This document shows positions 3,716 through 53,197 of a stretch of 64,000 nucleotides of DNA, piece by piece. This DNA comes from an uncultured Nitrososphaerota archaeon (GTDB lineage Archaea > Thermoproteota > EX4484-205 > JAAOZP01), in the NCBI GenBank assembly GCA_964416155.1, contig CAYQCW010000001.1, positions 170,943 through 234,942 on the forward strand, given 5' to 3'. The position numbers and the translations under genes were made by a program. The notes under the pieces were generated by a model. That model had not been told where the DNA came from. It made no database searches and saw only the letters and a program-made list of their open reading frames with translations. How positions within the stretch are numbered: position 1 is the first letter of the stretch; every line of letters begins with the position of its first letter.

Positions 3716-3725
3716 GCCGTCTAAA

Positions 3726-10976: not shown

Positions 10977-11023
10977 ATCGCCCTCAGGGTCGGAGTGACC
11001 CGGTTTAAGCTTAACTTCAACCC

Positions 11024-11458: not shown

Positions 11459-11460
11459 TG

Positions 11461-11715
11461 TTAAGACCCCTCGTAGAACATTTGTTTCTCAGCGAAGTGC
11501 GTGACGACTTCATTACTCCCAGCCTCCTCTATATCCTTGTGGAACGCTACTGATAGGCCCAATTCTCCTCTGCCTACCGATATGAATACTGCTGGCCTAG
11601 ACGTTTCTAGCAACTCTATTGGGCTAAGCCTCTTCTCAACCTCACTACTGTAGGAGGGGACACGTTCAATCAGGCTGATTCCCACATCAGGCTTCATTCT
11701 AACAGTCATTTTCAA
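11461..11715 (-). CDS. Hypothetical small protein encoded inside the pur operon
   Basis: This 84-aa ORF overlaps the purD start codon by 4 bp (ATGA), indicating translational coupling, and ends 3 bp before purE. No family recognised. Confidence 0.35.
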   Translation of the reverse strand: MKMTVRMKPDVGISLIERVPSYSSEVEKRLSPIELLETSRPAVFISVGRGELGLSVAFHKDIEEAGSNEVVTHFAEKQMFYEGS

Positions 11716-24561: not shown

Positions 24562-25479
24562 ATGAAACCGGATCCATTATGCATCCCATGCACCGTAAAT
24601 GCCGCCCTAGACATAGCCCTTAAAGCGACTAATGACCAAGACACTATCAGGGAGATACTTTTAGAGAGCTTAAGATGGATTCCGAAGGCCTTCGAGGAGG
24701 ATGCTTCACCGAACGTCCTTCACTCGCAAGTATGCAGGATTACTCGAAAAATAGCCGGAGTGAGAGACCCGTTTAAGCATGTGAAGACTGTTTCAAATGA
24801 AATTGCCTTAAAGGTTTATCCAAGCCTATGTGAAATGCTTGAATCAATCAGGAATGATGTCGAAGTACTTAGGTTTTCCCTCAAAGCATCCATAATTGGA
24901 AATATGATGGATTTTGAGGTGAAAAATTATCGCTTCAATCTTGAAAGCCTAGAATCACGGTTTAAAGACTATTTGAAGGAGCCTTTGGTGATCGACGACG
25001 TGGATAAGCTGTGTGATGCAATCAGCGGCGGGAAGAAGATCCTTTATCTAGCGGATAATGCGGGGGAAATAGTTTTCGATAAGCTTGTCGCGAAATGTCT
25101 GAAAGAGAGATGGGGGTGCAGTGTTACGATGGTTGTTAAAGACGGGCCTGTTTTGAACGATGCGACTCTGGAAGATGCGGAGTACGTCAGGCTTGGCGAT
25201 GCATGTGACAAAATCGTTACTACGGGGGACGACACTATAGGAGTTGTTTTTGACAGGGTTTCGGAGGAGTTTAAGCAAGCCCTGAAGGAATCAGACATAG
25301 TGATATCTAAAGGACAAGGAAACCTCGAGTCTCTCACTGGGCTTGAAAAGAATATTGGCAAGCCTGTTTGCTATGTTCTGAGAGTCAAATGTGAAGTAGT
25401 CGGCAGAAACCTCGATGTCCCAAAGGATTCTAACGTGGTTAAGCTTATAAGGTTCCACAAGTTTCAAAAACTTTATTAG
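24562..25479 (+). CDS. DUF89/ARMT1-like (damage-control phosphatase family) protein
   Basis: Motifs ILYLADNAGEIVFD (DNxGE) and VISKGQGN (KGxxN) match this family. There is an N-terminal C-x-x-C, and the protein is 305 aa. Confidence 0.55.
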   Translation: MKPDPLCIPCTVNAALDIALKATNDQDTIREILLESLRWIPKAFEEDASPNVLHSQVCRITRKIAGVRDPFKHVKTVSNEIALKVYPSLCEMLESIRNDVEVLRFSLKASIIGNMMDFEVKNYRFNLESLESRFKDYLKEPLVIDDVDKLCDAISGGKKILYLADNAGEIVFDKLVAKCLKERWGCSVTMVVKDGPVLNDATLEDAEYVRLGDACDKIVTTGDDTIGVVFDRVSEEFKQALKESDIVISKGQGNLESLTGLEKNIGKPVCYVLRVKCEVVGRNLDVPKDSNVVKLIRFHKFQKLY

Positions 25480-34256: not shown

Positions 34257-35078
34257 TTACTGTTTCAAAGCCAGTTTCAAAAGGTAGCATGCTGAAAACA
34301 GGATGATCGAGACTAAGGCTATTGCGCCGCTAGTCGGAATATCGTAGAGCAATGATACTGCAATACCCCCCAGCCCAGATATAACTTCAACTATGAAAGC
34401 CGCTAGCAGCATCATGCCTACGCGGCGGGCTAGCAGCCTCGAGACCGCTGCAGGGATTACGAGAAGCGTGACGGAAAGAAGAATGCCCATGGTTCTCGCC
34501 ACGACAGCGGCAGTTATCGCTGAAACAGCGAATAGCAGCGAGTCGTATAGTCCAGTTTTAAGGCCGAATGATTCAGCAGTCTCAATGTCGAAGCAAATAT
34601 AGATAAACTCCCCGTAAAACATTATGGTGGCAATCAGTGCAACGGTTGATGCAGCCGCCAGGCTGAGCACATCCATTTCTGAAAGTAGTAGAAGGTCGCT
34701 CACAAGATAACTGTCAACCAAAATCCTCCTGTCTATCGGCAGGTAGCTTCTTATGATCGTGTAGAGCATCACGCTTACAGCAAGGGAAACGCTGAGCATC
34801 ATGCCCAAGGCTTGCTGACTGCTCCTACCGACACGGGAAACAAGTATGGATGTTGCCACGCAGAATACTATTGCAAATACAAACGGGTCTCCCACCCCTG
34901 GAAGAAAAGCCTGGATTAAAACACCTACTGCTGCACCCCCTAAGGCGGCGTGTGAAATCTCAGGAGTAATGTAGAGAGCTCCTCTTAAAAGCATGATTGC
35001 TGAAATCGGTGCTGAGAACGATGTGAAAATAACCCCTAGGATTGCTCTTAAAACAAACGGGTCAAGCATGTTTATCAC
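34257..35078 (-). CDS. Metal ABC transporter permease (ABC-3/ZnuB-MntB-like)
   Basis: A 273-aa polytopic protein that overlaps the ATPase gene. Confidence 0.7.
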   Translation of the reverse strand: MINMLDPFVLRAILGVIFTSFSAPISAIMLLRGALYITPEISHAALGGAAVGVLIQAFLPGVGDPFVFAIVFCVATSILVSRVGRSSQQALGMMLSVSLAVSVMLYTIIRSYLPIDRRILVDSYLVSDLLLLSEMDVLSLAAASTVALIATIMFYGEFIYICFDIETAESFGLKTGLYDSLLFAVSAITAAVVARTMGILLSVTLLVIPAAVSRLLARRVGMMLLAAFIVEVISGLGGIAVSLLYDIPTSGAIALVSIILFSACYLLKLALKQ

Positions 35079-35841
35079 CCAGTATTAAGATCCTTCGACC
35101 CTCTCTTTCAACAGTTCTTAAACAGGGATAGAAAGGTTTCAGCCTATCCTCGCTTAAAACCACACTTGGATCGCCGTATAAGCATACAAACCTGTTTAAA
35201 ACAAGAATCCTGTCGGTAAGCTCTATTATAGGGTCAACCTCGTGATCCACGATAACTATGGTTCTTCCCCTCTCCTTCAACGTTTTGAAAACTTTAATCA
35301 AGTATTCCTGACTCTCGGAATCTAGCCCTGCGAACACCTCGTCCAGCAGTAGAAGCAGCGGGTCGGATGCTAATGCCCTCGCTATCAGGACCCTTCTCTG
35401 CTGCCCCCCGCTTAGCTCGTTGAAAAAGGACCCCCAGTGTTCCTCCATACCTAAGCATGCTAGAGCCCTTCTCGCGGATTCAACATCATCCTTTGAAACA
35501 GCTCTGGGAAAACTTTTTCTCAAGACTATCCCCATCAGGACGGCTTCGTTCACCCTTAACGGGGTTTCGTAGGAAACCATGTCTTTCTGCGGGACGTAGC
35601 CAACGAGCCTTCTGAGCCTGCCGTAGTCAGTCACGGGGTTTAACCCGAGCACTTTAACGCTTCCCTTGAAAGGCTTAACCATGCCTAGGAGAAGCCTTAA
35701 AAGCGTAGTCTTGCCAGCACCGTTCGGCCCGACGACAGTTATGAACGACGGGGACTCAACCTGGAAGCTAACATCCTCCAACGCCATGTACCCATCCAGC
35801 CTCACGGAAACGTTTTCGACAGATATCACTGGAACACTCAT
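35062..35841 (-). CDS. Metal ABC transporter ATP-binding protein (ZnuC/MntA-like)
   Basis: Walker A GPNGAGKTT, the signature LSGGQQRR and Walker B LLLLDE are all present. Confidence 0.85.
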   Translation of the reverse strand: MSVPVISVENVSVRLDGYMALEDVSFQVESPSFITVVGPNGAGKTTLLRLLLGMVKPFKGSVKVLGLNPVTDYGRLRRLVGYVPQKDMVSYETPLRVNEAVLMGIVLRKSFPRAVSKDDVESARRALACLGMEEHWGSFFNELSGGQQRRVLIARALASDPLLLLLDEVFAGLDSESQEYLIKVFKTLKERGRTIVIVDHEVDPIIELTDRILVLNRFVCLYGDPSVVLSEDRLKPFYPCLRTVEREGRRILILGDKHA

Positions 35842-36857
35842 GATTTACTCCTCCTAACCAAGATTATTGTTTCAAGCACGATCACCAGCAGGGCTGCAAG
35901 CGTTGTCAGAAGGTAAATGTTAAGCCCGCTTGAAACAGTACCCCGCTCAGATAAGAGTGCACCGTAAACCTGCCCAGCATTATAGTACATTACTGAATCG
36001 TAATCCTTCACACCGCTTGCCGAAACTACTGAAACGTAAGCTATGTTGCAACCCGTATCCTTAGAGACTTCTCGCAGAGCATTCTGGATCCCACTCATCA
36101 ATAAAGCAGTGTCGGAGACAACTATGCAAGCATACTCTCCAGACTTAAGCCCGTCGTAAACCCTGCTCAACGATCCTGGGCTTATAGCCTCGCCTTCACC
36201 AACCAGCACAGCACCTGCTTTCAAACCCATGGCTTCAACAACGTATTGCTCTTCATAGAAACCTATGACAACCCTCCTCCCAGACGAACCATGCTTCTCC
36301 GAAAGCCTTTCAAGAAAAATCTTTAGAGACGACACTTTCTCCTCGAAAAGCCTGTAGTTAAACCAGTATTCCTCTGAATGCTCAGGCCTCAAGGTTGAAA
36401 GCCTGTCTCTCAGAGCTCTCGCAATCAGGACAGCATTATCGGGCAGAAGCCAGAAGCCGTGAGTATTCCTCCCTCCCTCCAGCTCAAGAATAGTGCCATT
36501 TCTCTCAACCAGCTCAAGCAGGTTTAGCGATATTGAACCGGTTTCAACACCTCTTTCCTCTGCAACCCGTTTCACAAGGTCCTCCTCCCACTCCATGTGG
36601 CCGGTTATAACGATCAGGTCAGCATCGGAAGCGTTTCTCACAACACTGGGAGTAAGGGTGAAGCCATGTGGCTCAGCATCACCGGGAACAATCGAATAGA
36701 CTTCCCCAGTACTGCCTGTTACAGAGGAGACAATCGGTCTCAGAATATCCAGCGTGACAACTATCTTTGTCTTCCCATCCAGCCTAGCATAAGTAGGCAT
36801 GGGTAAAAATGTTAGGAGTAACGTGAGGAGCATGATTCCAACCGTGTTCCTCAGCAA
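35838..36857 (-). CDS. Metal-binding periplasmic/surface substrate-binding protein (TroA/ZnuA-like), N-terminal anchor
   Basis: There is an N-terminal hydrophobic segment, the protein is 339 aa, and it is operonic with the permease and ATPase. Confidence 0.6.
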   Translation of the reverse strand: MLRNTVGIMLLTLLLTFLPMPTYARLDGKTKIVVTLDILRPIVSSVTGSTGEVYSIVPGDAEPHGFTLTPSVVRNASDADLIVITGHMEWEEDLVKRVAEERGVETGSISLNLLELVERNGTILELEGGRNTHGFWLLPDNAVLIARALRDRLSTLRPEHSEEYWFNYRLFEEKVSSLKIFLERLSEKHGSSGRRVVIGFYEEQYVVEAMGLKAGAVLVGEGEAISPGSLSRVYDGLKSGEYACIVVSDTALLMSGIQNALREVSKDTGCNIAYVSVVSASGVKDYDSVMYYNAGQVYGALLSERGTVSSGLNIYLLTTLAALLVIVLETIILVRRSKS

Positions 36858-37300
36858 CCGGACCTGCCTCCTGGAATATGGTTTCTATGAGGACAGGTCT
36901 TAGGATGGCCGAGAGCACTACACATGGAGTCAACAATCTTATCAGGAAGATATTGTTCAACCATGCTCGCGAATTCGCAAGCATCCTCCAGACTGATTGA
37001 AAGAACCCTGTACACGTATGTTTCGAAAACCCTGTGGTTCCTGATTATCCTGTTGACCTCCTCCAATCCTTTTTTCGAAAGGCTCGCTCCCCTCCAAAGA
37101 TATCTTTTAAGCATGCCCTTTTCCTCTAGTCTTCCAAGATATTCGCTTGCAGTCGCACATGAAACCCCCATCGCATCCGCTACTTCAAGGCTTCCAACCA
37201 TATCTCTTCCTGAAAGCAGTTTGAAAACCATCTTAAGATACTCAATCTCTTTCCCAGTCAGGCTCTTCGAAGCATGTTTTGAAGCTCCCGATTCAGGCAT
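36851..37300 (-). CDS. DtxR/MntR-family metal-dependent transcriptional regulator
   Basis: An HTH plus LGHPKTCPHRNHIP (the DtxR metal-site/dimerisation signature LG.P..CPHG..IP) identify the family. It is the first gene of the metal-uptake operon. Confidence 0.75.
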   Translation of the reverse strand: MPESGASKHASKSLTGKEIEYLKMVFKLLSGRDMVGSLEVADAMGVSCATASEYLGRLEEKGMLKRYLWRGASLSKKGLEEVNRIIRNHRVFETYVYRVLSISLEDACEFASMVEQYLPDKIVDSMCSALGHPKTCPHRNHIPGGRSGC

Positions 37301-38537: not shown

Positions 38538-40688
38538 TCAGACGAGAAAAAACTCCTCTTTCTCGCCGAACTTCCTGTATTTCTTAAGCATATCCTCTTT
38601 CAAACTGGGTTTAACGGTTTGAAGAGCTTTTTCAAAATCCTCCTTAGTCACCTTGTCAGCATCCCTTCTCAAAGCGTTTAAGCCAGCCTCCCTGCAGAGC
38701 GCCTCCAGGTCAGCCCCAGAGTAGCCCTCAGTCCTCTTTGCAACCTCCTCCAGGCTAACGCCCTCCAAGGGCATTCTCCTCGTATGTATCTTAAGTATCT
38801 GGAGCCTTGAAGCCTCATCAGGCGGGGGAACATACAGCATTACTTCAAACCTTCCCGGCCTCATTATCGCAGGGTCGAGAAGTTCAGGCCTGTTAGTAGC
38901 GCCTATTATGATAATCCTCTCAATAGGGGTTAGCCCATCCATCTCTGTTAGAAGCTGGCTTACAACCCTCTCGGTTACGCCGCTGTCAGCCATGCTCATA
39001 CCCCTCCTCGGAGCGATCGCGTCAACCTCATCCAGGAAGATTATTGAGGGTGAGGCGAGCCTAGCTTTCCTAAACACTTCTCTTATTGCTTTCTCAGACT
39101 CTCCAACCCATTTTGAGAAGATTTCTGGACCCTTAATGCTTATGAAGTTGGCCTCGCTCTCAGTCGCGACTGCTCTAGCGAGAAGAGTCTTCCCGCATCC
39201 CGGTGGGCCGTAGAGAAGTATCGCTTTAGGAGGCGTTATACCTAGTTTTTCAAACTTCTCCGGGGTCTTTATCGGGAGCTCAACGGTCTCCCTGAGCCTC
39301 CTCTTAATCTCCTCGAGCCCCCCGACGTCACTCCACCTGACCGTGGGAACCTCAACGTATACTTCTCTCATAGCGGAGGGAGTTATTTCTTTAAACGCGT
39401 TCATGAAGTCCTCAGCCTTAACAACCATTTTCTCTAATACGGATTGAGGAATCCTCTCATCCAGCTTTATCTCAGGCAAGTATCTTCTCAAAGCCTTCAT
39501 CGCCGCCTCCCTGCATAGTGCAGCCAGGTCTGCACCAGTGTAGCCGTGCGTTATTTCAGACAGCTTCTTTAAGTCCACATCCTTGTCAAGCGGCATAGAC
39601 CTAGTGTGTATCTGAAGTATTTCAAGCCTGCCCTGCTTATCGGGCACTCCTATCTCTATCTCTCTGTCGAACCTCCCAGGCCTGCGTAAAGCAGGGTCAA
39701 TCATGTTCGGAACATTCGTTGCGCCTATGACGATCACGTCACCCCTAGCCTTCAAACCATCCATGAGCGCTAGAAGCTGAGCCACTACTCTTCTCTCAAC
39801 CTCGCCGCCAACCTCCTCCCTCTTCGGCGCTATAGCGTCAATCTCGTCTATGAAGATTATGCTCGGAGCCTTCTCCTGAGCCTCTTGGAAAACCCTTCTA
39901 AGCCTTTCCTCAGACTCGCCGTAAAACTTGCTCATTATCTCAGGCCCGTTTATAGAAAGGAAGTTGGCGTCAGACTCGTTTGCAACAGCCTTAGCAAGGA
40001 GCGTTTTACCAGTGCCAGGCGGGCCGTGGAGTAGCACGCCCTTAGGCGGCTCTATGCCCAGCCTCTGGAAAAGCTCAGGGTGTCTCAAGGGAAGCTCAAC
40101 CATCTCCCTTATTCGCTGAATCTCCTCGTGTAAACCGCCAATATCCTCGTAAGTAACCCTTGGAATAGCCAGCTTCTCAGCAGCCTCTTCGCTCACTATC
40201 TGCATCCTAGTGTCTGGAGTAACCTTCACGAAGCCTCTCGGCTTAACCCGGACCACGGTGAGGCCGAGTGCTTGGCCGCCGAAGACCGGTACTGCAACTA
40301 TATCGCCCTCGGTGAGGGGAGTGTCTATGAGCTTATCCCTAGCATAGTCTAGGAAATCCTCGTCCACGCTGGATATTCGCGTGCCCATTGGTGCTAACAC
40401 GACTTCGCTAGCGTTCTCAACCTTATCCACCTTCCTGATCTTCACGTAGTCCCCTATCGCAACCCCGGCGCTCCTCCTTATCAGGCCGTCCATCCTCACT
40501 ATCTTACGATCCTCATCCTCAGCGTAGCCGGGCCAGACTACTGCTGAAGCAGACTTCCTGCCAAGTATTTCGACAACGTCTCCAGTCTCAGCCTTAAGCT
40601 GAGCCATCTCCTTCCTCCCTATTCTAACTATCCTCCTGCCGACATCCCTCGGGCGTGCTTCAGCAACAACTAGTTGAACCTCACTCAT
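38538..40688 (-). CDS. cdc48: CDC48/VCP-like AAA+ ATPase (two AAA domains)
   Basis: An N-domain is followed by two Walker A/B modules ([24 protein letters not shown]). The protein is 716 aa. Confidence 0.95.
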
Positions 40689-40765
40689 GGTTTTCGAGAA
40701 AGGGCCCTGCCACTTAGATTTAAGCTTTCAACAAACCTGTTCACATTAGCCAGAGTAAAATAATC

Positions 40766-42544
40766 CTACTGTGCTTCCTTAGGCTCCTCCTCAATCTTCT
40801 TCAACTGACTTCTATACATTTCCAGGATCTCTTTAACGGTTGTAGCTTGCTCCGGAGACTTATCGTCCCTAAGCTTCCCCGTATACTTCGGGAAGCGGCC
40901 GGCGAAGCCTGACCCTTCTCTAACCAAGCCTAGGCCGCACGTGTGAACTGGGCTCAGGGTTATTTCGGAGACTATTATCTCAATGACGATCCTGGGCTCA
41001 ACCCAAACGTCAGCCTCAATCTTAGAATCCACCCTGGGATGCCTATGCTCAATCCTGTATTTGCCGACAAGCTCGGCGAACTTCTCAAGATCCTCGTCTG
41101 TAAAACCGGTTCCGCATTTAGCAAACGTTCTAAACATGTCCTCCTCAGGGTCATAGGCGGCTAGAAGATACGCGCCGTACCTGCCTGCTCTCTTCCCCCT
41201 ACCGTGGAAAGCCCCGACCATAACCAGGTCTATGGTGTCAGCGACCTCGACCTTATACTCCCTCTTCAGCTTTATCCAGCTCCACTCCCTGGCACCAGCC
41301 CTATAAGGTGCTTTCAAATCTTTAACAACAAGCCCCTCGCAGCCCTCTGAAATAGCCTCCTCCATGAAGCTCTCTATCTCCCTAGGATCTTTTGAAACGA
41401 TTTGTCTAACCAGCTTAACCCTCTCGTCTTCAACAATAATCCTGCTTAACGCAGACCTCCGTTCAACGTATGTTTTCTGAGTATAATCCATCTCATCAGC
41501 ATACAGTAGGTCGAAGAAGAACATGGCAACAGGATATTCTTTCATCGCCTCCTCCACGCCATACTTCCTCCTCCTGTGCATAAGCTCTTGAAACGGCAGC
41601 AGCTCTCCAGTATTCGGGTTTATCGCCACGCATTCAGCTTCAAGAATAGCCTCCCGGGCCTTCACATTCCTCCTAGCTAGCTCTATAGCGTCAGGATAGT
41701 GGCTAGTAATGTTTTCCAGCCGTCGTGAGAAAAGCATAATGCCACCACCATTCTTATGAATCTGGACGCGCTCTCCGTCGAGCTTATACTCTGCAGCGGC
41801 CTCGCCGCCAAGCTTTTCAAGAACCTCTTGAACGGTTGTCAAGCGTTCCGCAAGCATCGGCCTAACAGGTTTGCCGACCGTAATCTTAAACTCTGAAACA
41901 CCGCTGAGCCCCTTCTCAGCAACAGCTCTCGCAACAGCCCCCAGGTCGCTGGAAATGTTGTATGCACGCTCTATAACCGGCCTGTTAGACTTGTCGCCGG
42001 TGAACGCTTGAGCGAGAGCATCCAGAATCGTGTAGTCAGCTATGCCGAGCCTAAGCCTCCCGGTGATTGTTCTAACAGCATACTTAGCCTCCTTCGGAGA
42101 CATGTCTATCAGCAGGGAGACGAGCAGGCTCGTCTTCAGAGTCACAGAGCCTTTCCCACCCAGCTTGGCAAGCCTGTAGAGCTTCTCGTATACTTCCAGT
42201 AGGGTTGGGTTCCTGCTTACAAGCTTCCTCTGAACCTTTCTTCCTGCAAGGGTTTCCGCCGTGCTTCCAAGGTCTCCGGTATCCTTGTAGATTTTCTCAA
42301 CAGTCTTCTGGTCAAAACCTGAGAAATCCGCTAAAGCCCTTAAGACGAGTTTGTCAGCCATCCCGAATTCTAGGCCCTCGTAGTCAGGCCTAACCTTTCC
42401 CTGAAGCAGGTAGACAAGCTTCTCAAGCTCAGCAGGGCCAGCCTTCTTAAACAGGTCTACGAGGAAGCTCGTCATCTCAATCCTTTTCGACGTCAACTCA
42501 ACTTGCTCCATCGCGTCCGCGACTTCTCCGAAAAGCATAACCAT
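40766..42544 (-). CDS. lig: ATP-dependent DNA ligase
   Basis: The KxDG adenylation motif appears as EYKLDGERVQI. This 592-aa protein is of the archaeal Lig type. Confidence 0.95.
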   Translation of the reverse strand: MVMLFGEVADAMEQVELTSKRIEMTSFLVDLFKKAGPAELEKLVYLLQGKVRPDYEGLEFGMADKLVLRALADFSGFDQKTVEKIYKDTGDLGSTAETLAGRKVQRKLVSRNPTLLEVYEKLYRLAKLGGKGSVTLKTSLLVSLLIDMSPKEAKYAVRTITGRLRLGIADYTILDALAQAFTGDKSNRPVIERAYNISSDLGAVARAVAEKGLSGVSEFKITVGKPVRPMLAERLTTVQEVLEKLGGEAAAEYKLDGERVQIHKNGGGIMLFSRRLENITSHYPDAIELARRNVKAREAILEAECVAINPNTGELLPFQELMHRRRKYGVEEAMKEYPVAMFFFDLLYADEMDYTQKTYVERRSALSRIIVEDERVKLVRQIVSKDPREIESFMEEAISEGCEGLVVKDLKAPYRAGAREWSWIKLKREYKVEVADTIDLVMVGAFHGRGKRAGRYGAYLLAAYDPEEDMFRTFAKCGTGFTDEDLEKFAELVGKYRIEHRHPRVDSKIEADVWVEPRIVIEIIVSEITLSPVHTCGLGLVREGSGFAGRFPKYTGKLRDDKSPEQATTVKEILEMYRSQLKKIEEEPKEAQ

Positions 42545-42586
42545 GGTATTAAGCGCATTTGGAGTGGTAAAAATGTTTCTGTCTCT

Positions 42587-43054
42587 TCAGAAAGAATAGG
42601 GCTGGGATTCCGAGGCGAGGAAGGCTTCTAAGAGCTTCTTGAAATCAACCGGGTCTCCTTCCCCAACTCCGGGACATTGCTCGTCGAAGATGAAAACGTA
42701 CTCCTCGTAGCCGTGTTTGACCACCTCCACGTCTTCAGGGAGGCTTAGAAGACGCTCCAACACCTTTTTCTCAACTGGGTAGAAAGGGTAAAGCCTGCAT
42801 AAAAGAGGCTTATGATCGTGGATCGTGCAAAGCCCGTTTCCGAGGAATTGGCAGAAACCTTTTTCACCAACCAGGATCATCCTACCCTCAGGGGTACGGT
42901 GTGGATTGAAGGAAGGTCGGACTCTTCTAATCTTCCCCACATCTTCTTCAGAAACCTCTGGAGTAAGACCGCAGCATTTCTCCCCGCAAAGTTTGCATTT
43001 GAAAAGCATGTTCCTCCAAGCTATCGGAAGCCTAGGGGGAATAGTTTCAACCAT
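42587..43054 (-). CDS. YkgJ/UPF0153-family Fe-S (CxxCxxxCC) protein
   Basis: CKLCGEKCCG is present together with further conserved Cys residues. Confidence 0.5.
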   Translation of the reverse strand: MVETIPPRLPIAWRNMLFKCKLCGEKCCGLTPEVSEEDVGKIRRVRPSFNPHRTPEGRMILVGEKGFCQFLGNGLCTIHDHKPLLCRLYPFYPVEKKVLERLLSLPEDVEVVKHGYEEYVFIFDEQCPGVGEGDPVDFKKLLEAFLASESQPYSF

Positions 43055-43109
43055 TTCAACAGAAACTTACAGGAACCTTTTTAAAACCTTATTCTTCAAT
43101 TGAGGAGGC

Positions 43110-43691
43110 TTGACGCGTAAAACTGCTGAAGCCTTCTCCTACCTGTTATCTAACCCTGTGGTAGGTGGCCTCGGAGGACTCGTAGTAATGCTTAGGGAGG
43201 AGGCTTTCCCAGACAGCCCTGTGCTGAACATTTTAACGGTGTTGCTCTTCTACAGCATACTTCCCTTTGTAAGCGTCTACTATCTCAGGCTGCGCGGCAA
43301 ATCAGACGTGTTTATGAGTGAAAGAAGCAGGAGGCCGAAACACTTTATTCCTGGGTTAGTAGGCTACGCGGTTTCAGCAATCGTCTTCCAAGCCTTAGGA
43401 ATGAGGCTGATGAAAACCGTTTCATCCTCATTCCTTTTAACATCGCTGATCCTTCTGCTCCTAACATTCGCGACAAAGGTGAGCATTCACGTCGCAGGCT
43501 TGACTGCAACAGTAATCCTAGTGCTTTACTCCTACTGGCCCACCGGATTAATACTCTTACCTCTGATACCTGTTTTAATGTGGGCACGCGTAAACACGGG
43601 TGAGCATACCTGCTGGCAGACGGTGTTTGGCGTCTTTACAGGCACCGTGGGCAGCCTACTCGGAATAGCGTTTTTTCCATCATGGTCTTAA
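43110..43691 (+). CDS. Hypothetical polytopic membrane protein
   Basis: 193 aa with several hydrophobic helices. Confidence 0.4.
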   Translation: MTRKTAEAFSYLLSNPVVGGLGGLVVMLREEAFPDSPVLNILTVLLFYSILPFVSVYYLRLRGKSDVFMSERSRRPKHFIPGLVGYAVSAIVFQALGMRLMKTVSSSFLLTSLILLLLTFATKVSIHVAGLTATVILVLYSYWPTGLILLPLIPVLMWARVNTGEHTCWQTVFGVFTGTVGSLLGIAFFPSWS

Positions 43692-43694
43692 CGC

Positions 43695-44438
43695 TTACCA
43701 GTGCACGGTCAAGCTACCGAGCCTAGGGAAGGCTTTCAACCCTTCTCCCTGAGCGAGAAGTACCGGTGTAAAAGACATCAAGTCGACTTTCCTAAGGATG
43801 GGGGAAAGAAGACTGTTCACATCAACCTCGTTAACCGCCATCCCCATTGTCAATGGGTTCATCGAGGGGAGTACTATTATCTTCACCCCCCTGTGCTCAC
43901 CGTGGAGGAAGCTTTTAAACCGGTGTTTAACCCCTATGGAGTCCCTTATTGAGACAACAGGGTGTTCGTGACCCATCAGAACGATGCTCCCGTCTCCTGG
44001 CAGCTCGTGTTCCTTGTCTCCGTGTATTAGAAAGTATTTCCCAAGCCTCAGAGGCGGGTCCTGAAACTCCACGTTAAGCCTTCTTAGAACAAGCCTCACA
44101 AAATTGTCATGGTTCCCCCTAACCAGCAGTGGCTCAGCGCCCAAGCTGCGAACATCGTTAACAAAATCCTGAACCTGCGTCCATTCCTCAGGATTTAAGT
44201 CTCCAAACTCGTTCTTAACATCCCCGAGGATTATAAGTCTCTTAGCAGACCTGTGGTCGAAAATGTTTCTCAAAGACTTGACCACCGGGGCGTATGTTGG
44301 GAAGGGGATGTGTACTCCTTTCTCCTCGAGCTCCCATTCTAGGCCGAGGTGAATATCGGCTACAACCATGGCGTCCAGTGATTTCACGTACAGTGCTGGT
44401 TCGAACTCAACTATTTCAACATCGTCAGTTAGCAGCAT
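43695..44438 (-). CDS. Metallophosphoesterase (calcineurin-like; Lhr-associated MPE-type)
   Basis: DIHLG, GDV.N, GNHD and GHEH match phosphoesterase motifs I to IV. The 5' end overlaps the 3' end of the Lhr gene. Confidence 0.7.
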   Translation of the reverse strand: MLLTDDVEIVEFEPALYVKSLDAMVVADIHLGLEWELEEKGVHIPFPTYAPVVKSLRNIFDHRSAKRLIILGDVKNEFGDLNPEEWTQVQDFVNDVRSLGAEPLLVRGNHDNFVRLVLRRLNVEFQDPPLRLGKYFLIHGDKEHELPGDGSIVLMGHEHPVVSIRDSIGVKHRFKSFLHGEHRGVKIIVLPSMNPLTMGMAVNEVDVNSLLSPILRKVDLMSFTPVLLAQGEGLKAFPRLGSLTVHW

Positions 44439-47073
44439 GTATTGCCGCCAGAACCTCCCTGTGAAGCCTCTCTAGAAGAGTCCTCTTATCCTCCATGAGC
44501 ACAACGTCGGAGAAGCTTGAAACAAGCAGAGAGTGGGAGAGAGGGGAAGCAACCCTGTTAGGCTTGCAGACCACTAGGCTCCTCACACCCTCTTCGAACT
44601 CGGATACAAATCTCGTCGCGTTCTTAATATCCATAACATCCTCAAGGATCTCCCTGTATGTTTCCCTCATAACTGGGAAATCCTTCAAATCCTTCACAGC
44701 TTTAAGAACGTGTTCAGAGTTCAACTGCAGTTTAGAAACTATTACCTCATGACCCTTATAGTTCCTAAGTATCATGAAGCTCCTGACAGCAACATGCCTA
44801 AACCTGTGTTTCAACATGTCTGTCTTTTCAATCGACGAGACGACGAGTTCCTGAAGGTTTGAAGAGTTCACCGATCTAACAACCTTCTCTGGATCAACCC
44901 TGTATTTTGGCGGGAGCATCAGCAGGAAACCATTATCGCTCACCGCGATCTGTATTGAAACGGATCCGAGCAGGTTTGACGCCGCCACTGCGAACGCTCT
45001 TGAAAGGACATCATTAACCCTTCTTCCCACTAGGCTGTGGAAAACAAGAATCTGCCTATCCGACTCATCAACATAGTTCTCCACTATTAACGAGCCCTTC
45101 CTGATGTACGGGAGTATACCTATGTTGTTGAAGTATTCCGCGGTTATCCTGAGATAATCGTAGAGGGCGACAGCAGTCTTCCCGTCTACCTTGAAATACT
45201 CCATGTACTGCTTAACCCTGTCCTTCTTCCTGTCGAACAGGATTGTCTGGAGCTCTCTTACCCTGAACTCGTCAATCATGTTGGCCAAGTCGTAGGAGAG
45301 GGGGAGCATCTCGGAGAACCATTGGGGCACAGTCGGCTTCTCACCCTCAGCGGGTTCGACTATAAGCTTCATCAAACGGCTTTTCAAACACCTGTATGGC
45401 CTGCCTCCGAGCAGGAAGATGTCTCCGGGGGAAAGCCTTTCGAAAAACTCCTCCTCAATGTTTCCAACAGGCCTGTTGTCCCTTGTGAAGACCTTGACCA
45501 TCGCCATGTCGGGTATCGTACCGGTGTTAGTCATGTAGATCACCCTAGCGAGATTACCCCTTCTTCCGAAAACCCCGTCAGCCTCGTCAAGCCAAATCTT
45601 CCCGTAAACCTTGTATCCCTCAAGCTGCCTGTAGTACCCGCTTAAATACCTCAGGACGCTTACGAAATCCTCTCTTGTCAGGTTTCTGAAGTTGTATGAT
45701 CTCCTAACGAGACCATATGCTTCGTCAACCCTCCATTTTCTCTCAACAGCCATGCCTACGATGTGCTGAGCCAAAACGTCAAGAGGATTCTCCGGAATAT
45801 AGGCTTCGTCAAGCTTTCCTGCTTCAGCAGCCTTAGACATTACGAGTACCTCGAGAAGATCATCCCTCTCCATGGGTATGAAGATGCCTTTTGAAACAGC
45901 CTCGAGAGAATGGCCCGAACGCCCTACTCTTTGAATCGCCCGGGTCACGGACTTGGGTGAGCCTATTTGAACCACGCAGTCTATGAAGCCGATGTCTATG
46001 CCTAGTTCAAGCGAGGTACTGGTGACAACAGCCTTAAGCCTTCCCTTCTTCAACTTGTCTTCAACGTCCAGCCTAACCTCGCGCGATAGAGAAGAATGGT
46101 GAGCAGCATACTCGTCCTCGCTTAAAACGGTTTTAGGCCTGAGCTTCTTAAGATGGTATACTACTCTCTCGGTGCTGCTCCGCGTGTTGGTGAAGATGAG
46201 AGTAGTCCTGTTACGCCTTATGATTTCGTTTATCAACCTGTACATCCTCCTGCCGAGCTCTTCAGCAGGCGTGTGGACGAGGTGATGGTGCGGCGATACG
46301 ACTTTAAGCTCGAACCTCTTTGAAGCATGAACATCCACTACGGTGCAAGGCCTCGGCGAGGAATCCTCGTAACCAGCCAGGTAGGCAGCAATCTTCTCCA
46401 AAGGGTGGATGGTTGCGGATAAGCCTATCCTCTGGAAATCTTGGCCGGAGAAGCTTCTCAGCCTTTCAAGGCTTAGCGAGAGGTGGGCACCCCTCTTAGA
46501 GCTGCAGAGCTCGTGTATCTCATCCACCACAACCCATCTGACACCCTTTAGAAAAGATCTGAATTTCGGCGCTACGAGAATTATGGAGAGGCTTTCAGGA
46601 GTGGTTATGAGTATGTGAGGAGGCTTCTTAAGCATCCTTCCCCTTTCAGAGGTTTTAGTATCACCCGTCCTAACGTGTATCCTTATCTCTGGAAGAGAGA
46701 CCCCTTTCTCCTCGGCAAGCCTCCTCAGCTCTTCCAACGGTTGTGAAAGGTTCTTCCTCACGTCATTGTTTAAAGACCGGAGGGGAGAAACATAAAGACA
46801 ATAAACCCTGTCTTCAAGCCTGCCTTCGAAACCCATTTTAATCAGATCATCCAGAATTGTTAAGAAGCATGCGAGCGTCTTACCGCTTCCGGTTGGCGCA
46901 GAGATTAAAGTGTTCTCACCCCTCCTAATAGGGATTATCCCATAGGACTGCGGCGGGGTTAACCCTTTGAACCTGCTTCTAAACCATTCGCCAACAATAG
47001 GGTGGAGTACCCTAACAACATCCTCGAGCGAACTCTTAACAGTGTAGAACCTGAAGGGCTCCCCTGACATCAC
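44425..47073 (-). CDS. lhr: Lhr-type ATP-dependent DEAD/DEAH-box helicase (Lhr-core)
   Basis: Walker A APTGSGKT and a DEIH box are present. The 882-aa length and the Lhr-specific C-terminal domains (winged-helix-like regions, not examined) are consistent with Lhr-core. Confidence 0.85.
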   Translation of the reverse strand: MMSGEPFRFYTVKSSLEDVVRVLHPIVGEWFRSRFKGLTPPQSYGIIPIRRGENTLISAPTGSGKTLACFLTILDDLIKMGFEGRLEDRVYCLYVSPLRSLNNDVRKNLSQPLEELRRLAEEKGVSLPEIRIHVRTGDTKTSERGRMLKKPPHILITTPESLSIILVAPKFRSFLKGVRWVVVDEIHELCSSKRGAHLSLSLERLRSFSGQDFQRIGLSATIHPLEKIAAYLAGYEDSSPRPCTVVDVHASKRFELKVVSPHHHLVHTPAEELGRRMYRLINEIIRRNRTTLIFTNTRSSTERVVYHLKKLRPKTVLSEDEYAAHHSSLSREVRLDVEDKLKKGRLKAVVTSTSLELGIDIGFIDCVVQIGSPKSVTRAIQRVGRSGHSLEAVSKGIFIPMERDDLLEVLVMSKAAEAGKLDEAYIPENPLDVLAQHIVGMAVERKWRVDEAYGLVRRSYNFRNLTREDFVSVLRYLSGYYRQLEGYKVYGKIWLDEADGVFGRRGNLARVIYMTNTGTIPDMAMVKVFTRDNRPVGNIEEEFFERLSPGDIFLLGGRPYRCLKSRLMKLIVEPAEGEKPTVPQWFSEMLPLSYDLANMIDEFRVRELQTILFDRKKDRVKQYMEYFKVDGKTAVALYDYLRITAEYFNNIGILPYIRKGSLIVENYVDESDRQILVFHSLVGRRVNDVLSRAFAVAASNLLGSVSIQIAVSDNGFLLMLPPKYRVDPEKVVRSVNSSNLQELVVSSIEKTDMLKHRFRHVAVRSFMILRNYKGHEVIVSKLQLNSEHVLKAVKDLKDFPVMRETYREILEDVMDIKNATRFVSEFEEGVRSLVVCKPNRVASPLSHSLLVSSFSDVVLMEDKRTLLERLHREVLAAIHAAN

Positions 47074-47120
47074 TCGGCTCCTTCAAAGCTATGCTCAAGA
47101 TAGTGTTGATAAACCTTCCC

Positions 47121-47720
47121 CTAACTCCCGCTTTTCCACCGGGGCATCACTATAAGGCCTTCATCAGGATCCCCGTAGGCCTCGTAATCACCATCGTAAA
47201 ACATTTTCGCCACGAGGGCAGCAGTAACAGCGTCAAGCTCATGATGGGTCTCCGCCTTCCCCAGCCCCCTTATTTTAAGACGCGCTAATCCTTTCCGAAG
47301 ACTCTTGACGCCGCGAGATTTACGCGGTATCCTGAGAATATCCTGAGCTCCTCCGGGATAAACCTCTATAACCCTGAAACCAGAAGAATCAAGCATCTTT
47401 TTAAGCCGGATGCCTCTTTCCGTCAGGGAGCGCATAGGCCCCAGTGTGACGGGGAAAAACCTTATGCCTCTTCTCAAAAGCTCCCTGTCGCAAACCCTAA
47501 GGTGAATACTACTCCTGACCTGTAGGCTGACTCTCCCCCTTGGCAGGGAGAGCGGAGCATCAACCGCGACCACCGCGGGATTGAAACGTGAAACCTTCCT
47601 CAGGATCTCCGCATCCGTATACAGCATCATTGTTTCAACGCTTAGGGACTCATCCAGGGCTGCGAAACCACTTGGCCTAGTCTCCACCCCGGCTAGATCT
47701 ATGCCTATGAAAAACATCAT
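47121..47720 (-). CDS. RNase-H-fold nuclease-like protein (DUF429-like)
   Basis: The N-terminus MMFFIGIDLAG and the 199-aa length fit the family. It overlaps the tatD stop by 4 bp. Confidence 0.4.
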   Translation of the reverse strand: MMFFIGIDLAGVETRPSGFAALDESLSVETMMLYTDAEILRKVSRFNPAVVAVDAPLSLPRGRVSLQVRSSIHLRVCDRELLRRGIRFFPVTLGPMRSLTERGIRLKKMLDSSGFRVIEVYPGGAQDILRIPRKSRGVKSLRKGLARLKIRGLGKAETHHELDAVTAALVAKMFYDGDYEAYGDPDEGLIVMPRWKSGS

Positions 47721-48478
47721 ATTCTCAACCCAAACAGCCTGAGAGCGTTCCTAGTGGTTTCCTCAGCAACAGTATCCTGATCGACTTTTTTAATCCTAGC
47801 TATCTCCCTGAGGCTGAAAACAATGTTTGCAGGCTCATTCCTCTTAAACGGGTCAACCCCGAGAACCGGCGAGTCTGACTCCAGCAGAATGTTTTCCAAC
47901 GGGAGCCTGGCTGCAAGCTTCTGCTTCTGCGGCGACCTCACTATTGAGGGTGGAATGCTGAAGAAGAAGCCTGCTTCAACACTCTTCATAGCGTACGAGG
48001 CCTTCCCGTCGAAAGCATGCATCAAAACCCTTTTAGCATTGTTTGCAACCAGTATGTCGATAGCCTCTCTACCGGCGCTTCTCGAGTGAACTATAATCGG
48101 CACATCAAGCTTTTTAGCAAGCCCTATGAAATTTTCGAAAACCCCGATAAGCCTAGCCCTGTCCTCGCGACTCCTAACCGTATAGTAGTCTAGGCCAACC
48201 TCGCCGACTCCGATTATCCGACTCTTGTTGTCAAGGATGAGTTGCGTAACTTCCTCATGTCTGACGGAGAAGGGGGCTCCGTAGTCAATACCTATGGTCG
48301 AGTAAACATAGCCCTTGAATCTTTCCGAAATCCTCAGAGATCTTAAGCCACCATCCGGGCCCAGCCCACAGTCCACGATGGCTGCTAAACCGTTCTCCCT
48401 AGCTTTCAACACAACGGTATCCAGGTCGGTTTCGAAAGAACTATCGCTCAAATGCGCATGCACATCTATGAGCCGCAA
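47717..48478 (-). CDS. tatD: TatD-family metal-dependent hydrolase/DNase
   Basis: MRLIDVHAHL and the metal-ligand His/Glu/Asp pattern match TatD. The protein is 253 aa. Confidence 0.85.
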   Translation of the reverse strand: MRLIDVHAHLSDSSFETDLDTVVLKARENGLAAIVDCGLGPDGGLRSLRISERFKGYVYSTIGIDYGAPFSVRHEEVTQLILDNKSRIIGVGEVGLDYYTVRSREDRARLIGVFENFIGLAKKLDVPIIVHSRSAGREAIDILVANNAKRVLMHAFDGKASYAMKSVEAGFFFSIPPSIVRSPQKQKLAARLPLENILLESDSPVLGVDPFKRNEPANIVFSLREIARIKKVDQDTVAEETTRNALRLFGLRI

Positions 48479-48546
48479 GGAGACGAGTCAGCCTGTTCGA
48501 AGACAGAGATAAACCTTTAACTACCTTAAATCCTCATTAAGCCGGA

Positions 48547-48750
48547 ATGGTTAAGAAGGCGGGCACCAGGCTATACGTGCTTAACAAGAGGCTGGGTGGG
48601 AAAACATACTCTGCGACAATGCTGTATTTACCGAGTAAGATCGTTAACGATTCCGCGTTCCCCCTGAGAAAGAAGAGCAGGCTCGTCGTGAGAATAGTTG
48701 GCGACAAGATAGTTGTTGAGAGCGAGAAGACCGGTAGGAGGAAGCCTTAA
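48547..48750 (+). CDS. AbrB/MazE/SpoVT-like swapped-hairpin DNA-binding protein
   Basis: LYLPSKIVNDSAF..SRLVVRIVGDKIVVE resembles the SpoVT/AbrB domain. Confidence 0.35.
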   Translation: MVKKAGTRLYVLNKRLGGKTYSATMLYLPSKIVNDSAFPLRKKSRLVVRIVGDKIVVESEKTGRRKP

Positions 48751-49319: not shown

Positions 49320-51872
49320 CTAGGCTAGGACGTCATACTCTTCCGAGACTGGGGGCGGCTGAGGCCTACGCCTCCTTATCCAGAGCAGCGACATTGAAAC
49401 AGCCAAAACGACAGCGAAGCTTATGACCACAAGGATCAAGTATAGATTGCTCACTCTAAAGAAAACCTCTTTAACACCAGTATTACCGTAAGGATCGGTG
49501 GCATTGATCACCATCCTGTATTCTCCAACCGGATTAGTAACTGGGAGATAATAGTCTCCAACCCACTTGCCACCCTGGTATCTGAGGCTTATGATGCTCG
49601 CGAGGGTACCGGAGGAGACCGTTGCAGTCACGTCTCCGTCTTCAAGACTTGAAGAATCCGGGTATTTAACGATTGTTCTTAAAGAAACTGTTTCAAACCC
49701 CGCCTGATAACTCTCCTTCAAAGCCTCCATTTCAAAGCTTAGAACAGCCCGGGTTATTTCAACGGGAACCATGTATAAACCATAGTTTTCAAAAGAGTCT
49801 TTAACGGTAACGTTTAACACGTACTGTCCCACGGGAGCACTCCGAGGGGCGCTGATGTTTCCAATCCAAGCTTCGGCTGAGAACCCTAGCTGGGCGAGAG
49901 CCTGCGCAACACCATTATGAACCAGCTTAGCGTCCACGAAGGCGCCTTTCTCCCTAGAAACGTTCTCCACCGTAAGAACCTCCTTAGAAGGGTATTTCAC
50001 CACCACTTTGACGGGTATTTTCTCGGTTCTGGAGAACCTGCTGCCAAGCGGGGTTAACAGCTGTATGATTAGCCTAGCTGGAACAATCCTTATTTCCCGA
50101 GAGAAATCCCCACTGTTCCCCATCTCGTCTACCGCTGTTATCATAAGGATCCATCCTCCCGTTTCCTCGCCCACCGGGATCTTCCAAGACAGACCCCAGT
50201 CTCCCAAGCTGGTCTTGTCGAAGTTAAACGGGCCCTTTCTAGTCTGACCCTTGATAAGTTCAAGAGTCACGCTGCCGGATGGCAAGGGTGTTCCATCAGG
50301 GTATGCAACGCCAACCGAGACGTTTAGCCTAACAGACCTTTCATAGGTAGCGTTAAGCTGGTTTTTTAGAGTTATCCTCAGCTTAGCAGTGGTGAGAGTA
50401 AACGTTCTGTTTCCGGAGCCAGTGTTTCCATACTGGTCTGAAGCCTCCACCTTAACCATGTAGCTACCCAAGGGGGCGGATGGTTCTGTCTTAATACTCT
50501 TGAACCAGTAGCCTTCGCGAAAGTAATCCATGAATATTTCTCTCCCCTGAACCCCGCCGTAGACCAGTCTTATCCTAACAACCCCGTTCCAAGGCAGGCT
50601 TGAACCATCCTTGTACTTAACTTGAACCGTTATGTTTACCGGCTTAACCCTTTCATAAGTTGTAGCATCCATTTCTACAGTAACGTTTAAAACCGCCCTG
50701 ACCAGGGTGACCTTAACAGCATCAGTAACCACCTTCATGTTTTTAAAGTCCAACGCATCATCACACTCTATGGAAGCAGAGAGGACGCCGAGCTGAATGT
50801 CCACGGGAACCGTTATCTGCCTACCAACTTCCCCTTTAGAATCCGTCTCCAGCCTCTGGCTGAAAACCACGTGCGTCGAGTTTTTCAAGTAGAGCGTCGC
50901 TGACCCGCTGCGCACCAGCCCACCAGCCTTAACCATGATTATTGACTTACGCTCCCATACCCGTGGAACATCCCAGATGCCGAAGTGATACTCTGTTACG
51001 CAGCCACTCCTGTTAACCCGCATAGTGTAGGTTCCCGGAGAAGGGTTGGTCAAGTTTATTGTGCGGGAGAACCCGCCAGTAGAATTAGCCGTTATGGAAT
51101 AGGTTGCAAGAACCGAACCATTTGGACGGATTATTTTAAGGTCGAATGATGATGTAAAAAACTGGTCTCCACTAATCTTCACCTGAACACTGCTGGAAGA
51201 AGCATACACAGGCTTGTCCGTGAGAATTATCGGGGAGACGAGCATTGAGAACTCGTCGAAAAAGGTTTTCACACCGTCTTGAGGCGGGTCAAAAACGCCG
51301 AGGGAGAGGTTCACCTGCTTCACAAGGAACAGTTTAACACCGGTAGCGATAGAGATTGTTTGACTACCATTATAAAGTATTGTTAAAGCATCCGATGAAG
51401 CATCCAGCCATATGGTTAAATTGTACCATTTTCCAGTCGAGAAAGTTGCGCCGTCATTCCTCCTATCTAGCCTGTAGGCCACTAGCTTCATATCGAGAAA
51501 GCCAAGCTTAACCTCGTACGTTGAAGAATCTGTAAGCACGAGGATCATCTTGGTAAAATTGAAGCTTGTGCCATTGTTTATCTTCATCATGAAGCTTGTT
51601 TTGAAGGATCCCTTAGCGTTTAAGACAGAGTATATGTATCCACGGTTCCCGGATGAAACGTTTATGCTTAGGCAGGGGCCCCGGAAGCCGTAAGGAGAAA
51701 AAGAGTAGCCTGAGCCCGTGAAGGATCCTGAGGGAGATATGCTTAGATTATTGGTGAAGGAAGAGTTGTAAGCAGGTATGAAGCACCCGTCGGCCTCAAC
51801 TCCGACCGGCATTATTAGGATTGCTAAGAGCAGCAATGCTGCAACCAGTATTACCATGCTATCCTTTGGCAT
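49320..51872 (-). CDS. Large secreted cell-surface protein with Ig-like repeats, many N-glycosylation sequons, C-terminal TM anchor and basic tail
   Basis: There is an N-terminal signal MPKDSMVILVAALLLLAILIMP, repetitive beta-rich segments, and numerous N-x-S/T sites. The C-terminus LYLILVVISFAVVLAVSMSLLWIRRRRPQPPP is hydrophobic then basic. Confidence 0.6.
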   Translation of the reverse strand: MPKDSMVILVAALLLLAILIMPVGVEADGCFIPAYNSSFTNNLSISPSGSFTGSGYSFSPYGFRGPCLSINVSSGNRGYIYSVLNAKGSFKTSFMMKINNGTSFNFTKMILVLTDSSTYEVKLGFLDMKLVAYRLDRRNDGATFSTGKWYNLTIWLDASSDALTILYNGSQTISIATGVKLFLVKQVNLSLGVFDPPQDGVKTFFDEFSMLVSPIILTDKPVYASSSSVQVKISGDQFFTSSFDLKIIRPNGSVLATYSITANSTGGFSRTINLTNPSPGTYTMRVNRSGCVTEYHFGIWDVPRVWERKSIIMVKAGGLVRSGSATLYLKNSTHVVFSQRLETDSKGEVGRQITVPVDIQLGVLSASIECDDALDFKNMKVVTDAVKVTLVRAVLNVTVEMDATTYERVKPVNITVQVKYKDGSSLPWNGVVRIRLVYGGVQGREIFMDYFREGYWFKSIKTEPSAPLGSYMVKVEASDQYGNTGSGNRTFTLTTAKLRITLKNQLNATYERSVRLNVSVGVAYPDGTPLPSGSVTLELIKGQTRKGPFNFDKTSLGDWGLSWKIPVGEETGGWILMITAVDEMGNSGDFSREIRIVPARLIIQLLTPLGSRFSRTEKIPVKVVVKYPSKEVLTVENVSREKGAFVDAKLVHNGVAQALAQLGFSAEAWIGNISAPRSAPVGQYVLNVTVKDSFENYGLYMVPVEITRAVLSFEMEALKESYQAGFETVSLRTIVKYPDSSSLEDGDVTATVSSGTLASIISLRYQGGKWVGDYYLPVTNPVGEYRMVINATDPYGNTGVKEVFFRVSNLYLILVVISFAVVLAVSMSLLWIRRRRPQPPPVSEEYDVLA

Positions 51873-52735: not shown

Positions 52736-53197
52736 TCATGGTTCCGAACCGGTCAGCTTTAAAATCTGTCGCGAAATATTCCTCCAGTGAGAACCCCTCC
52801 AGTATAACTTGCCACACGCCTTACACCTCCAGATTAAACCCACGTTTTTAGGAGCACCGGGATTTTTCTCAGCCTCATCAGGGGGCAAGAGCTCAAGCTC
52901 ACCGTTGCAAACCGTGCACCTTAAAGAATCCTCCTGGAGAAACAGCTTAAACCTCTCCACCAGCAGCCTTAACACCTCCTCCTCCGTTAAACCCTTGGTT
53001 AAAACAACTTCAACACTCTTTCTCTCAGCGATTTTCGCGAGCTCATCGTCAGAAGTCACAAGCACACGGCCGCCTAGAGCCAGTTGAACAATATCCTCGT
53101 CACCAACACTATTCAAGTAGAGGGTGTCGTAACCCATTATCCTAAGCCATTTAGCCACATAGCCATGCATACTGTCAACCAGAAACCTCTGGCCCAA
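52736..53197 (-). CDS. Mut7-C RNase domain protein (DUF82; PIN-like plus Zn ribbon)
   Basis: RFLVDSMHGYVAKWLRIMGYDT is followed by C-terminal CTVCNG..CKACG. Confidence 0.7.
   Translation of the reverse strand: MGQRFLVDSMHGYVAKWLRIMGYDTLYLNSVGDEDIVQLALGGRVLVTSDDELAKIAERKSVEVVLTKGLTEEEVLRLLVERFKLFLQEDSLRCTVCNGELELLPPDEAEKNPGAPKNVGLIWRCKACGKLYWRGSHWRNISRQILKLTGSEP

Follow-up and report, generated by a model that had tools for sequence, protein, structure and literature searches.

The window analyzed here is a stretch of 64,000 nt from an uncultured Nitrososphaerota archaeon (contig CAYQCW010000001.1, assembly GCA_964416155.1), in which eight genes between positions 38538 and 48478, among them that of the helicase Lhr, had been described in an earlier note as a DNA-damage neighbourhood. 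Gene identities were assigned by combining a listing of the open reading frames (ORFs) with profile searches against Pfam and the NCBIfam/TIGR models, and the 20 ORFs between 33.3 and 54.7 kb were scanned for domains. The names and the order of all eight genes, as first described, were upheld by these searches. Neither Rfam nor tRNA scans gave any match in this region, and the base composition of the locus was unremarkable.

The lhr gene (44425-47073, minus strand) encodes an Lhr-core superfamily 2 (SF2) helicase, which matched PF00270 (DEAD), PF00271 (Helicase_C), PF19306 (WH_Lhr), and PF08494 (DEAD_assoc), as well as NF010338 with 1184 bits (cut-off 849). The gene that follows it on the same strand (43695-44438) encodes an MPE-type binuclear metallophosphoesterase, archaeal SbcD-related, with a TIGR00024 score of 140.5 bits (cut-off 115.2). 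Upstream of lhr lie two further minus-strand genes. The first, tatD (47717-48478), encodes a TatD-family metal-dependent nuclease/hydrolase matching PF01026 over profile positions 1-253 of 253 (185.6 bits); its TIGR00010 score of 175.8 bits was below the subfamily cut-off of 206, so that the assignment holds at the family level only. The second (47121-47720) encodes a DUF429 protein (COG2410-type), a predicted RuvC-like nuclease of the RNase-H fold that matched PF04250 at residues 6-186 (39.8 bits, cut-off 23). On the other side of the lhr-MPE pair, a plus-strand gene (43110-43691) encodes a membrane protein with no Pfam match and only a sub-threshold LpxE/PAP2-like match in NCBIfam. Beyond it are three minus-strand genes, namely ykgJ, for a YkgJ-like CxxCxxCC zinc/iron-chelating-domain protein (42587-43054; PF03692, 40.8 bits, cut-off 23), lig, for an ATP-dependent DNA ligase with N-terminal, adenylation, and OB domains (40766-42544; PF04675, PF01068, and PF04679; TIGR00574, 527.5 bits, cut-off 217.8), and cdc48, for a Cdc48/VCP-like double-AAA+ ATPase with CDC48_N, CDC48_2, and two AAA domains (38538-40688; TIGR01243, 1067 bits, cut-off 803).

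The MPE, lhr, DUF429, and tatD genes had been placed opposite to the other block in the earlier note, which is not the case: the minus strand carries seven of the eight genes, and the membrane-protein gene is the sole one on the plus strand. This gene converges with the MPE gene at a distance of 3 bp, diverges from ykgJ across a 55-bp spacer, and splits the region into two blocks. Overlaps of 4 to 14 bp throughout had also been reported; those between tatD and DUF429 (4 bp) and between lhr and MPE (14 bp) stand, but DUF429 and lhr are separated by a gap of 47 bp, or of 50 bp if counted from the ATG at 47070. This ATG was kept in 15 genomes and the GTG at 47073 was not, and the ATG is the probable true start of lhr. 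The TTG start codon of tatD was also kept in 15 genomes. The remaining spacers measure 42 bp between ykgJ and lig and 77 bp between lig and cdc48.

A bacterial sigma-70/terminator scan is uninformative for an archaeon, and inspection of the upstream regions was used instead, together with alignment of the orthologous intergenic regions of 15 related genomes. Boxes of the TTTAWA/TTTATC type were found 30-40 nt before the start codons of many window genes, as expected for archaeal promoters with a transcription factor B recognition element (BRE), a TATA box, and short leaders. The BRE/TATA-like box AAGGTTTATC is located on the minus strand at 48508-48517, approximately 35 nt upstream of the tatD start, and recurs on the same strand at 47108-47117, in the gap between DUF429 and lhr, approximately 38 nt upstream of the lhr ATG. 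The alignments showed that TTAAAGGTTTATCT upstream of tatD was invariant in 15 genomes with diverging flanks, and that RAAGRTTTATC upstream of lhr was invariant in 15 genomes with a diverging spacer to the ATG. A Shine-Dalgarno-like GGAG also precedes lhr. The exact 10-mer AAGGTTTATC has three copies in the 64 kb, the third of which (24811-24820) lies inside a plus-strand ORF (24562-25479). In the divergent spacer between ykgJ and the membrane-protein gene, a shared TATA-like island, AAGGTTTTAAAAAGGTTC (43073-43090, minus strand), was detected, with TTTTAAAAAGRTTC kept and diverging flanks. Promoter-like islands were also present on the minus strand in the gaps between ykgJ and lig (AGAAACATTTTTACC, 42566-42580; AGAAAC(A/G)TTTTTACC near-invariant in 14 genomes, both flanks diverged) and between lig and cdc48 (GAAAGCTTAAATC, 40717-40729; AAAG(C/T)TTAAAT invariant in 11 genomes). 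Upstream of lig, AGAAACRTTTTTACC was conserved amid diverged flanks in the alignment of related genomes.

The conservation and position of these boxes suggest that they function as promoters. Because invariant TATA-like boxes precede tatD, lhr, the ykgJ/membrane-protein gene pair, lig, and cdc48, the genes appear to form separate transcription units, and the most economical reading of the sequence would be six of them: tatD-DUF429, lhr-MPE, the membrane-protein gene, ykgJ, lig, and cdc48.

In the scan with the Lhr protein, for which one genome per species was used, the close relatives were 14 hot-spring metagenome-assembled genomes (MAGs; 85-96% identity) labelled Candidatus Brockarchaeota, Thermoproteota, or 'Thaumarchaeota', and the identity was at most 58% for all other archaea. 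The relatives in this clade carried all eight genes in the same order. The surrounding ±10 kb was collinear throughout as well, including a ZnuABC-type transporter, a DtxR-like repressor, an MG2 protein, two CBS proteins, and a Mut7-C RNase, and thus the conservation of gene order within the clade is uninformative on function.

The comparison outside the clade comprised 66 archaeal Lhr loci of 44-58% identity (Nitrososphaeria, Aenigmarchaeota, Woesearchaeota, Desulfurococcales, Sulfolobales, Thermoplasmata, Methanomassiliicoccales, Hadesarchaea, and others), 55 of which had a flank long enough for the MPE count, and 79 metagenomic DUF429 loci of 52-61% identity, with at least 800 nt upstream in 54 and at least 1.5 kb downstream in 50. 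TatD, DUF429, ligase, YkgJ, or full-length Cdc48 was found within 10 kb of Lhr in none of the 66 loci, even at E≤1, and TatD, Lhr, or MPE was found near DUF429 in none of the 79. A ligase was detected near DUF429 at a single locus of the 79, approximately 5 kb away and on the opposite strand. Clustering of the ORFs at the 79 loci revealed no recurrent DUF429 neighbour, with no gene present in more than eight loci; the scattered neighbours included aminoacyl-tRNA synthetases, methionine aminopeptidase, GAPDH, and PGK. The contexts of TatD at 45-52% identity (three loci) were devoid of DUF429, Lhr, and MPE. At one of these, from a more distant Brock-labelled lineage, TatD lies within a few kb of homologues of the membrane protein (33% identical), MG2, and CBS proteins, and DUF429, Lhr, and MPE are absent there, which suggests that an lhr block and a tatD block were joined by rearrangement in one sub-lineage. 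The wider DNA-damage neighbourhood of the earlier note is not supported: outside one narrow clade its genes showed no co-conservation, either at the 66 Lhr loci or at the 79 DUF429 loci, and the proposed recruitment of TatD and an RNase-H-fold protein to the set did not recur from the Lhr, DUF429, or TatD side.

The linkage of Lhr with MPE did recur. Directly downstream of Lhr and in the same orientation, an MPE gene was present at 17 of 55 assessable archaeal loci outside the clade, and the pair was seen in DPANN, Nitrososphaeria, Thermoplasmata, Hadesarchaea, and methanogen loci. The core architecture of the window Lhr was complete (RecA1, RecA2, winged helix, and Domain 4/DEAD_assoc), with all Pfam scores above the cut-offs, and its best solved relative was the Lhr of M. 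smegmatis (5V9X, 414 bits). The closest solved relative of the MPE protein was the P. putida nuclease MPE (6NVO, E 1.8e-10). This closest solved relative and the recurrence at 17 distant loci bear out the likeness to the bacterial pair that had been proposed: the genes for Lhr and the metallophosphoesterase are a true pair, coupled in translation, with homology to the Lhr-Core/MPE pair of bacteria.

Two-gene Lhr-Core/MPE clusters have been stated for archaea (PMC7826289), and the two-gene cluster is credited to Ejaz & Shuman 2018 as cited in that article. Hajj et al. (2021) reported a TIGR00024 gene beside alhr1/alhr2 in many archaea, with no further conserved neighbour (PMC8301817), a pattern that the present neighbourhood results reproduce exactly. 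The archaeal Lhr-MPE pair is thus already published, and the locus adds one lineage, for which the pair had not been reported specifically.

The MPE of the clade keeps the DxH, GD, GNHD (equivalent of His113), and GHEHP motifs, and carries Asn (residue ~81, GDVKN) at the position equivalent to His81 of the P. putida enzyme. Of the 17 other archaeal MPEs linked to Lhr, 16 have His (GD.KH) at this position. In P. putida MPE, His81 is reported to be essential for DNA cleavage and dispensable for the hydrolysis of bis-p-nitrophenyl phosphate (bis-pNPP) (PMC7826289). The His-to-Asn change may have altered the substrate chemistry of MPE in the clade, and such a clade-specific substitution at a position reported as cleavage-essential may merit specialist attention.

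The window Lhr probably belongs to the aLhr1 group, given that Nitrososphaeria, Methanomicrobiales, and Methanosarcinales, groups described as lacking aLhr2 (PMC8301817), are among its best matches in the outgroups. A Conexivisphaera MAG (locus L070) carries two Lhr paralogues, 53% and 33% identical to that of the window, approximately 5 kb apart (2640-4910, minus strand, and 10001-12562, plus strand).

For the DUF429 protein, structural modelling gave a confident model of a RuvC-like RNase-H fold, in which the topology is of the RuvC type and the acidic residues of the active site are conserved; this points to a RuvC-like nuclease. Majorek et al. (2014) placed DUF429 in clade D, the RuvC-like clade, of the RNase H-like superfamily (PMC3985635), and no characterised member of the family was found in that article or in a literature search. 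The PDB sequence search with the DUF429 profile likewise gave no match. The family is unusually strongly conserved, with 52-61% identity among the DUF429 loci retrieved outside the clade and 4715 database hits, the named ones belonging to Bathyarchaeota, Aenigmarchaeota, and Nitrososphaerota. DUF429 would represent an uncharacterised, apparently housekeeping RuvC-like nuclease of archaea, which are thought to depend on Hjc-type resolvases. A conserved family with a confident RuvC-like model and with no solved structure or steady neighbours may also merit specialist attention.

A literature search for a link between Lhr and TatD returned only unrelated bacterial work. In an Aigarchaeota MAG (locus L167, 6001-10263), the genes for the RFC small and large subunits come directly after that of a TatD orthologue (52% identity), in the same orientation, and an Orc1/Cdc6 gene comes next on the opposite strand, a replication context unlike that of the window.

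Divergently from tatD, across a spacer of 68 bp, lies a small conserved gene that was absent from the earlier description of the locus (48547-48750, plus strand), recognized by its translation and its conservation. Its product is a basic protein of 67 amino acids, predicted to be all-beta. Each of the 15 related genomes carried an intact copy, with 72-88% identity. Searches of Pfam, NCBIfam, and the PDB, the last also with a profile of the ORF, gave no match, and the single-sequence model (predicted local distance difference test score, pLDDT, of 60) was too poor for a fold search. The protein might act as a small regulator that binds DNA, with a likeness to AbrB that is judged by eye only.

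In summary, the region of this Brockarchaeota-like archaeon very probably represents a series of housekeeping units, each transcribed from a promoter of its own and juxtaposed in a lineage-specific manner, and not a single damage-response system. The lhr-MPE bicistron would be its sole evolutionarily conserved functional module, an archaeal form of the described Lhr-Core/MPE cluster with translational coupling through the 14-bp overlap. Going by the characterised homologues, from which the enzymatic activities of the locus proteins are taken, Lhr would act as a 3'→5' helicase and MPE as a Mn-dependent single-stranded DNA endonuclease cutting the strand exposed by Lhr. The tatD-DUF429 genes would form a second bicistronic unit immediately upstream, encoding TatD-family and RuvC-like RNase-H-fold nucleases, and ykgJ, a Lig1-type ligase gene, and cdc48 stand downstream beyond the membrane-protein gene, each with its own promoter-like element. 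The juxtaposition of the units would have arisen from genome rearrangement and been kept in close relatives only through persisting collinearity. As a rough estimate, three adjacent nucleic-acid-enzyme units (lig, lhr-MPE, and tatD-DUF429) among approximately six, in a genome of approximately 1,500 genes, are not clearly beyond chance.

Several points weigh against this interpretation. The same AAGGTTTATC precedes tatD and lhr, which may reflect co-regulation rather than merely a strong generic promoter, and transcription from the tatD promoter may run on into lhr. It is also suggestive that four genes for nucleic-acid enzymes follow one another on a single strand with short spacers. Moreover, the sampling of other lineages covered the best 80 loci of each scan, and a second lineage with the same arrangement might exist among the Lhr or DUF429 relatives beyond these.

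The alternative that survives best is a lineage-specific four-gene super-operon, in which tatD-DUF429 was recruited to lhr-MPE in the Brockarchaeota clade. In such an operon, Lhr would, for example, unwind stalled forks or RNA:DNA hybrids, DUF429 and MPE would cut branched or single-stranded intermediates, and TatD would trim 3' ends. The tight spacing of the four genes on one strand (4-bp overlap, 47-50 bp gap, and 14-bp overlap), the identical box before tatD and before lhr, the nucleic-acid activities predicted for all four proteins, and the presence of the arrangement in 15 of 15 clade genomes are all consistent with it. However, this conservation was indistinguishable from general synteny, the arrangement did not recur outside the clade from any of the three proteins used as a starting point (Lhr, DUF429, or TatD), a conserved promoter-like box and a Shine-Dalgarno-like GGAG precede lhr itself, and the more distant relative has TatD in the absence of the other three genes; the super-operon is thus unlikely. 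A co-regulated four-enzyme pathway specific to the clade, with DUF429 and TatD joined to lhr-MPE and the same AAGGTTTATC before both halves, appears quite unlikely. If true, it would provide the first functional clue for DUF429, which would then be a structure-specific nuclease that acts together with Lhr at stalled forks or RNA:DNA hybrids.

Another explanation is that the locus is the archaeal counterpart of the bacterial Exo-Lig-Lhr-Core-MPE operon, extended by Cdc48, YkgJ, TatD, and DUF429. The homology of Lhr and MPE to the bacterial components fits this explanation, as does a ligase gene 1.2 kb from the MPE gene on the same strand. However, the plus-strand membrane-protein gene and separate promoter boxes stand between MPE and lig, and all three proteins scored below the cut-offs of the bacterial equivalog models: 181 bits for the ligase against the ligase-associated model TIGR04120 (cut-off 400), 552 bits for Lhr against TIGR04121 (cut-off 850), and 88.9 bits for MPE against TIGR04123, PdeM (cut-off 150). 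No gene for an MBL/β-CASP Exo (Lactamase_B domain) was present among the 20 scanned ORFs, and the ligase was absent within 10 kb of Lhr at all 66 of the other archaeal loci. By its sequence, the ligase is of the Lig1/dnl1 type and not of the bacterial ligase-associated type. Ligases of the Lig1 type are required for replication in most archaea, and the window enzyme is presumably replicative. Its orthologues of 57-68% identity are spread across Nitrososphaerales and Bathyarchaeia, as expected for a replicative Lig1-type ligase, and at the three ligase loci inspected (67, 61, and 59% identity) the neighbours were unrelated, with no YkgJ, Cdc48, Lhr, or MPE. The comparative data therefore contradict the counterpart, which is largely refuted and in our view very improbable. 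The analogy drawn in the earlier note with the ligase-associated operon holds for the homology of Lhr and MPE; it does not hold for the ligase, which is a Lig1-type enzyme in a separate unit, with no Exo gene nearby and no linkage elsewhere. At the nearest outgroup locus of the ligase (67% identical; locus L161, 9000-9830, minus strand), the ligase gene is divergently paired not with ykgJ but with an AP_endonuc_2 gene, the product of which is a xylose-isomerase-like TIM barrel of the endonuclease IV type.

Defence systems include Lhr-like helicases (DpdJ and BrxH), the TatD-like QatD, and the DUF429-like PDC-S44. An anti-virus defence island was rejected as extremely unlikely, given that the PADLOC matches that favour it were merely partial or at the domain level (Lhr to DpdJ, 446 bits, in the N-terminal helicase part only; TatD to QatD, 69 bits; the DUF429 N-terminus to PDC-S44, 57 bits), that no Dpd, BREX, or Qat partner genes (QatA-C, Dpd, or Brx) were found in the neighbourhood scans, that the NCBIfam scores for QatD and DpdJ were far below the cut-offs, that the base composition is unremarkable, and that 45-68% identical orthologues of all the genes occur in many archaeal phyla in housekeeping contexts, unlike patchy defence genes.

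Three neighbours of the locus were also recorded. Just downstream of cdc48, a ZnuA/ZnuC/ZnuB-type metal ABC transporter operon of overlapping genes (34257-37300, minus strand) is preceded by a gene of the DtxR/iron-dependent-repressor family, and was collinear in most related genomes with a flank reaching it. On the other side, an MG2/alpha-2-macroglobulin-like protein of approximately 850 amino acids is encoded near the locus (49320-51872, minus strand). Distant homologues of it (26-30% identity) lie near a ligase or TatD gene in two outgroups (locus L161, 16615-19164, and locus L166, 9985-12582), and this proximity is left over from an older synteny that has no relation to DNA repair. Approximately 4 kb upstream of tatD, a gene for a Mut7-C RNase-domain protein (52736-53197, minus strand; PF01927, 119 bits) shares 23 bp with the end of a CBS-domain gene.

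As it stands, the finding is of little weight, one more lineage for the known archaeal Lhr-MPE pair. The apparent repair island of eight genes is a matter of synteny and very probably not a system, a result that guards against over-annotation of Brockarchaeota genomes.

Compared with known systems, the locus shares with the bacterial Exo-Lig-Lhr-Core-MPE cluster (TIGR04120-04123) a homologous helicase and phosphoesterase and a nearby same-strand ATP-dependent ligase with an N-terminal DNA-binding domain. It differs from that cluster in that the Exo gene is absent, the ligase gene is a separate unit behind an opposite-strand gene, three equivalog models scored below cut-off, and the ligase linkage is not conserved in other archaea. 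Within the RuvC/RuvX (YqgF)/MOC1 clade, the modelled fold of DUF429 differs by approximately 40 extra residues between strand 4 and the next helix, the sequence identity to RuvC is merely 15-16%, and DUF429 has no conserved genomic partner. The window Lhr is, like aLhr1 of Sulfolobus acidocaldarius, an archaeal Lhr-core helicase, although its placement as aLhr1 rather than aLhr2 is suggested only by the taxonomy of its matches. The deletion of aLhr1 in S. acidocaldarius led to sensitivity to helix-distorting DNA damage (PMC10003305), which supports a repair role for the enzyme type. The closest likeness is to the two-gene Lhr-Core-MPE cluster, from which the clade differs in the Asn at the position of P. 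putida His81, and with which it has in common the four-domain Lhr core and the overlapping, same-strand COG1407/TIGR00024 phosphoesterase gene downstream.

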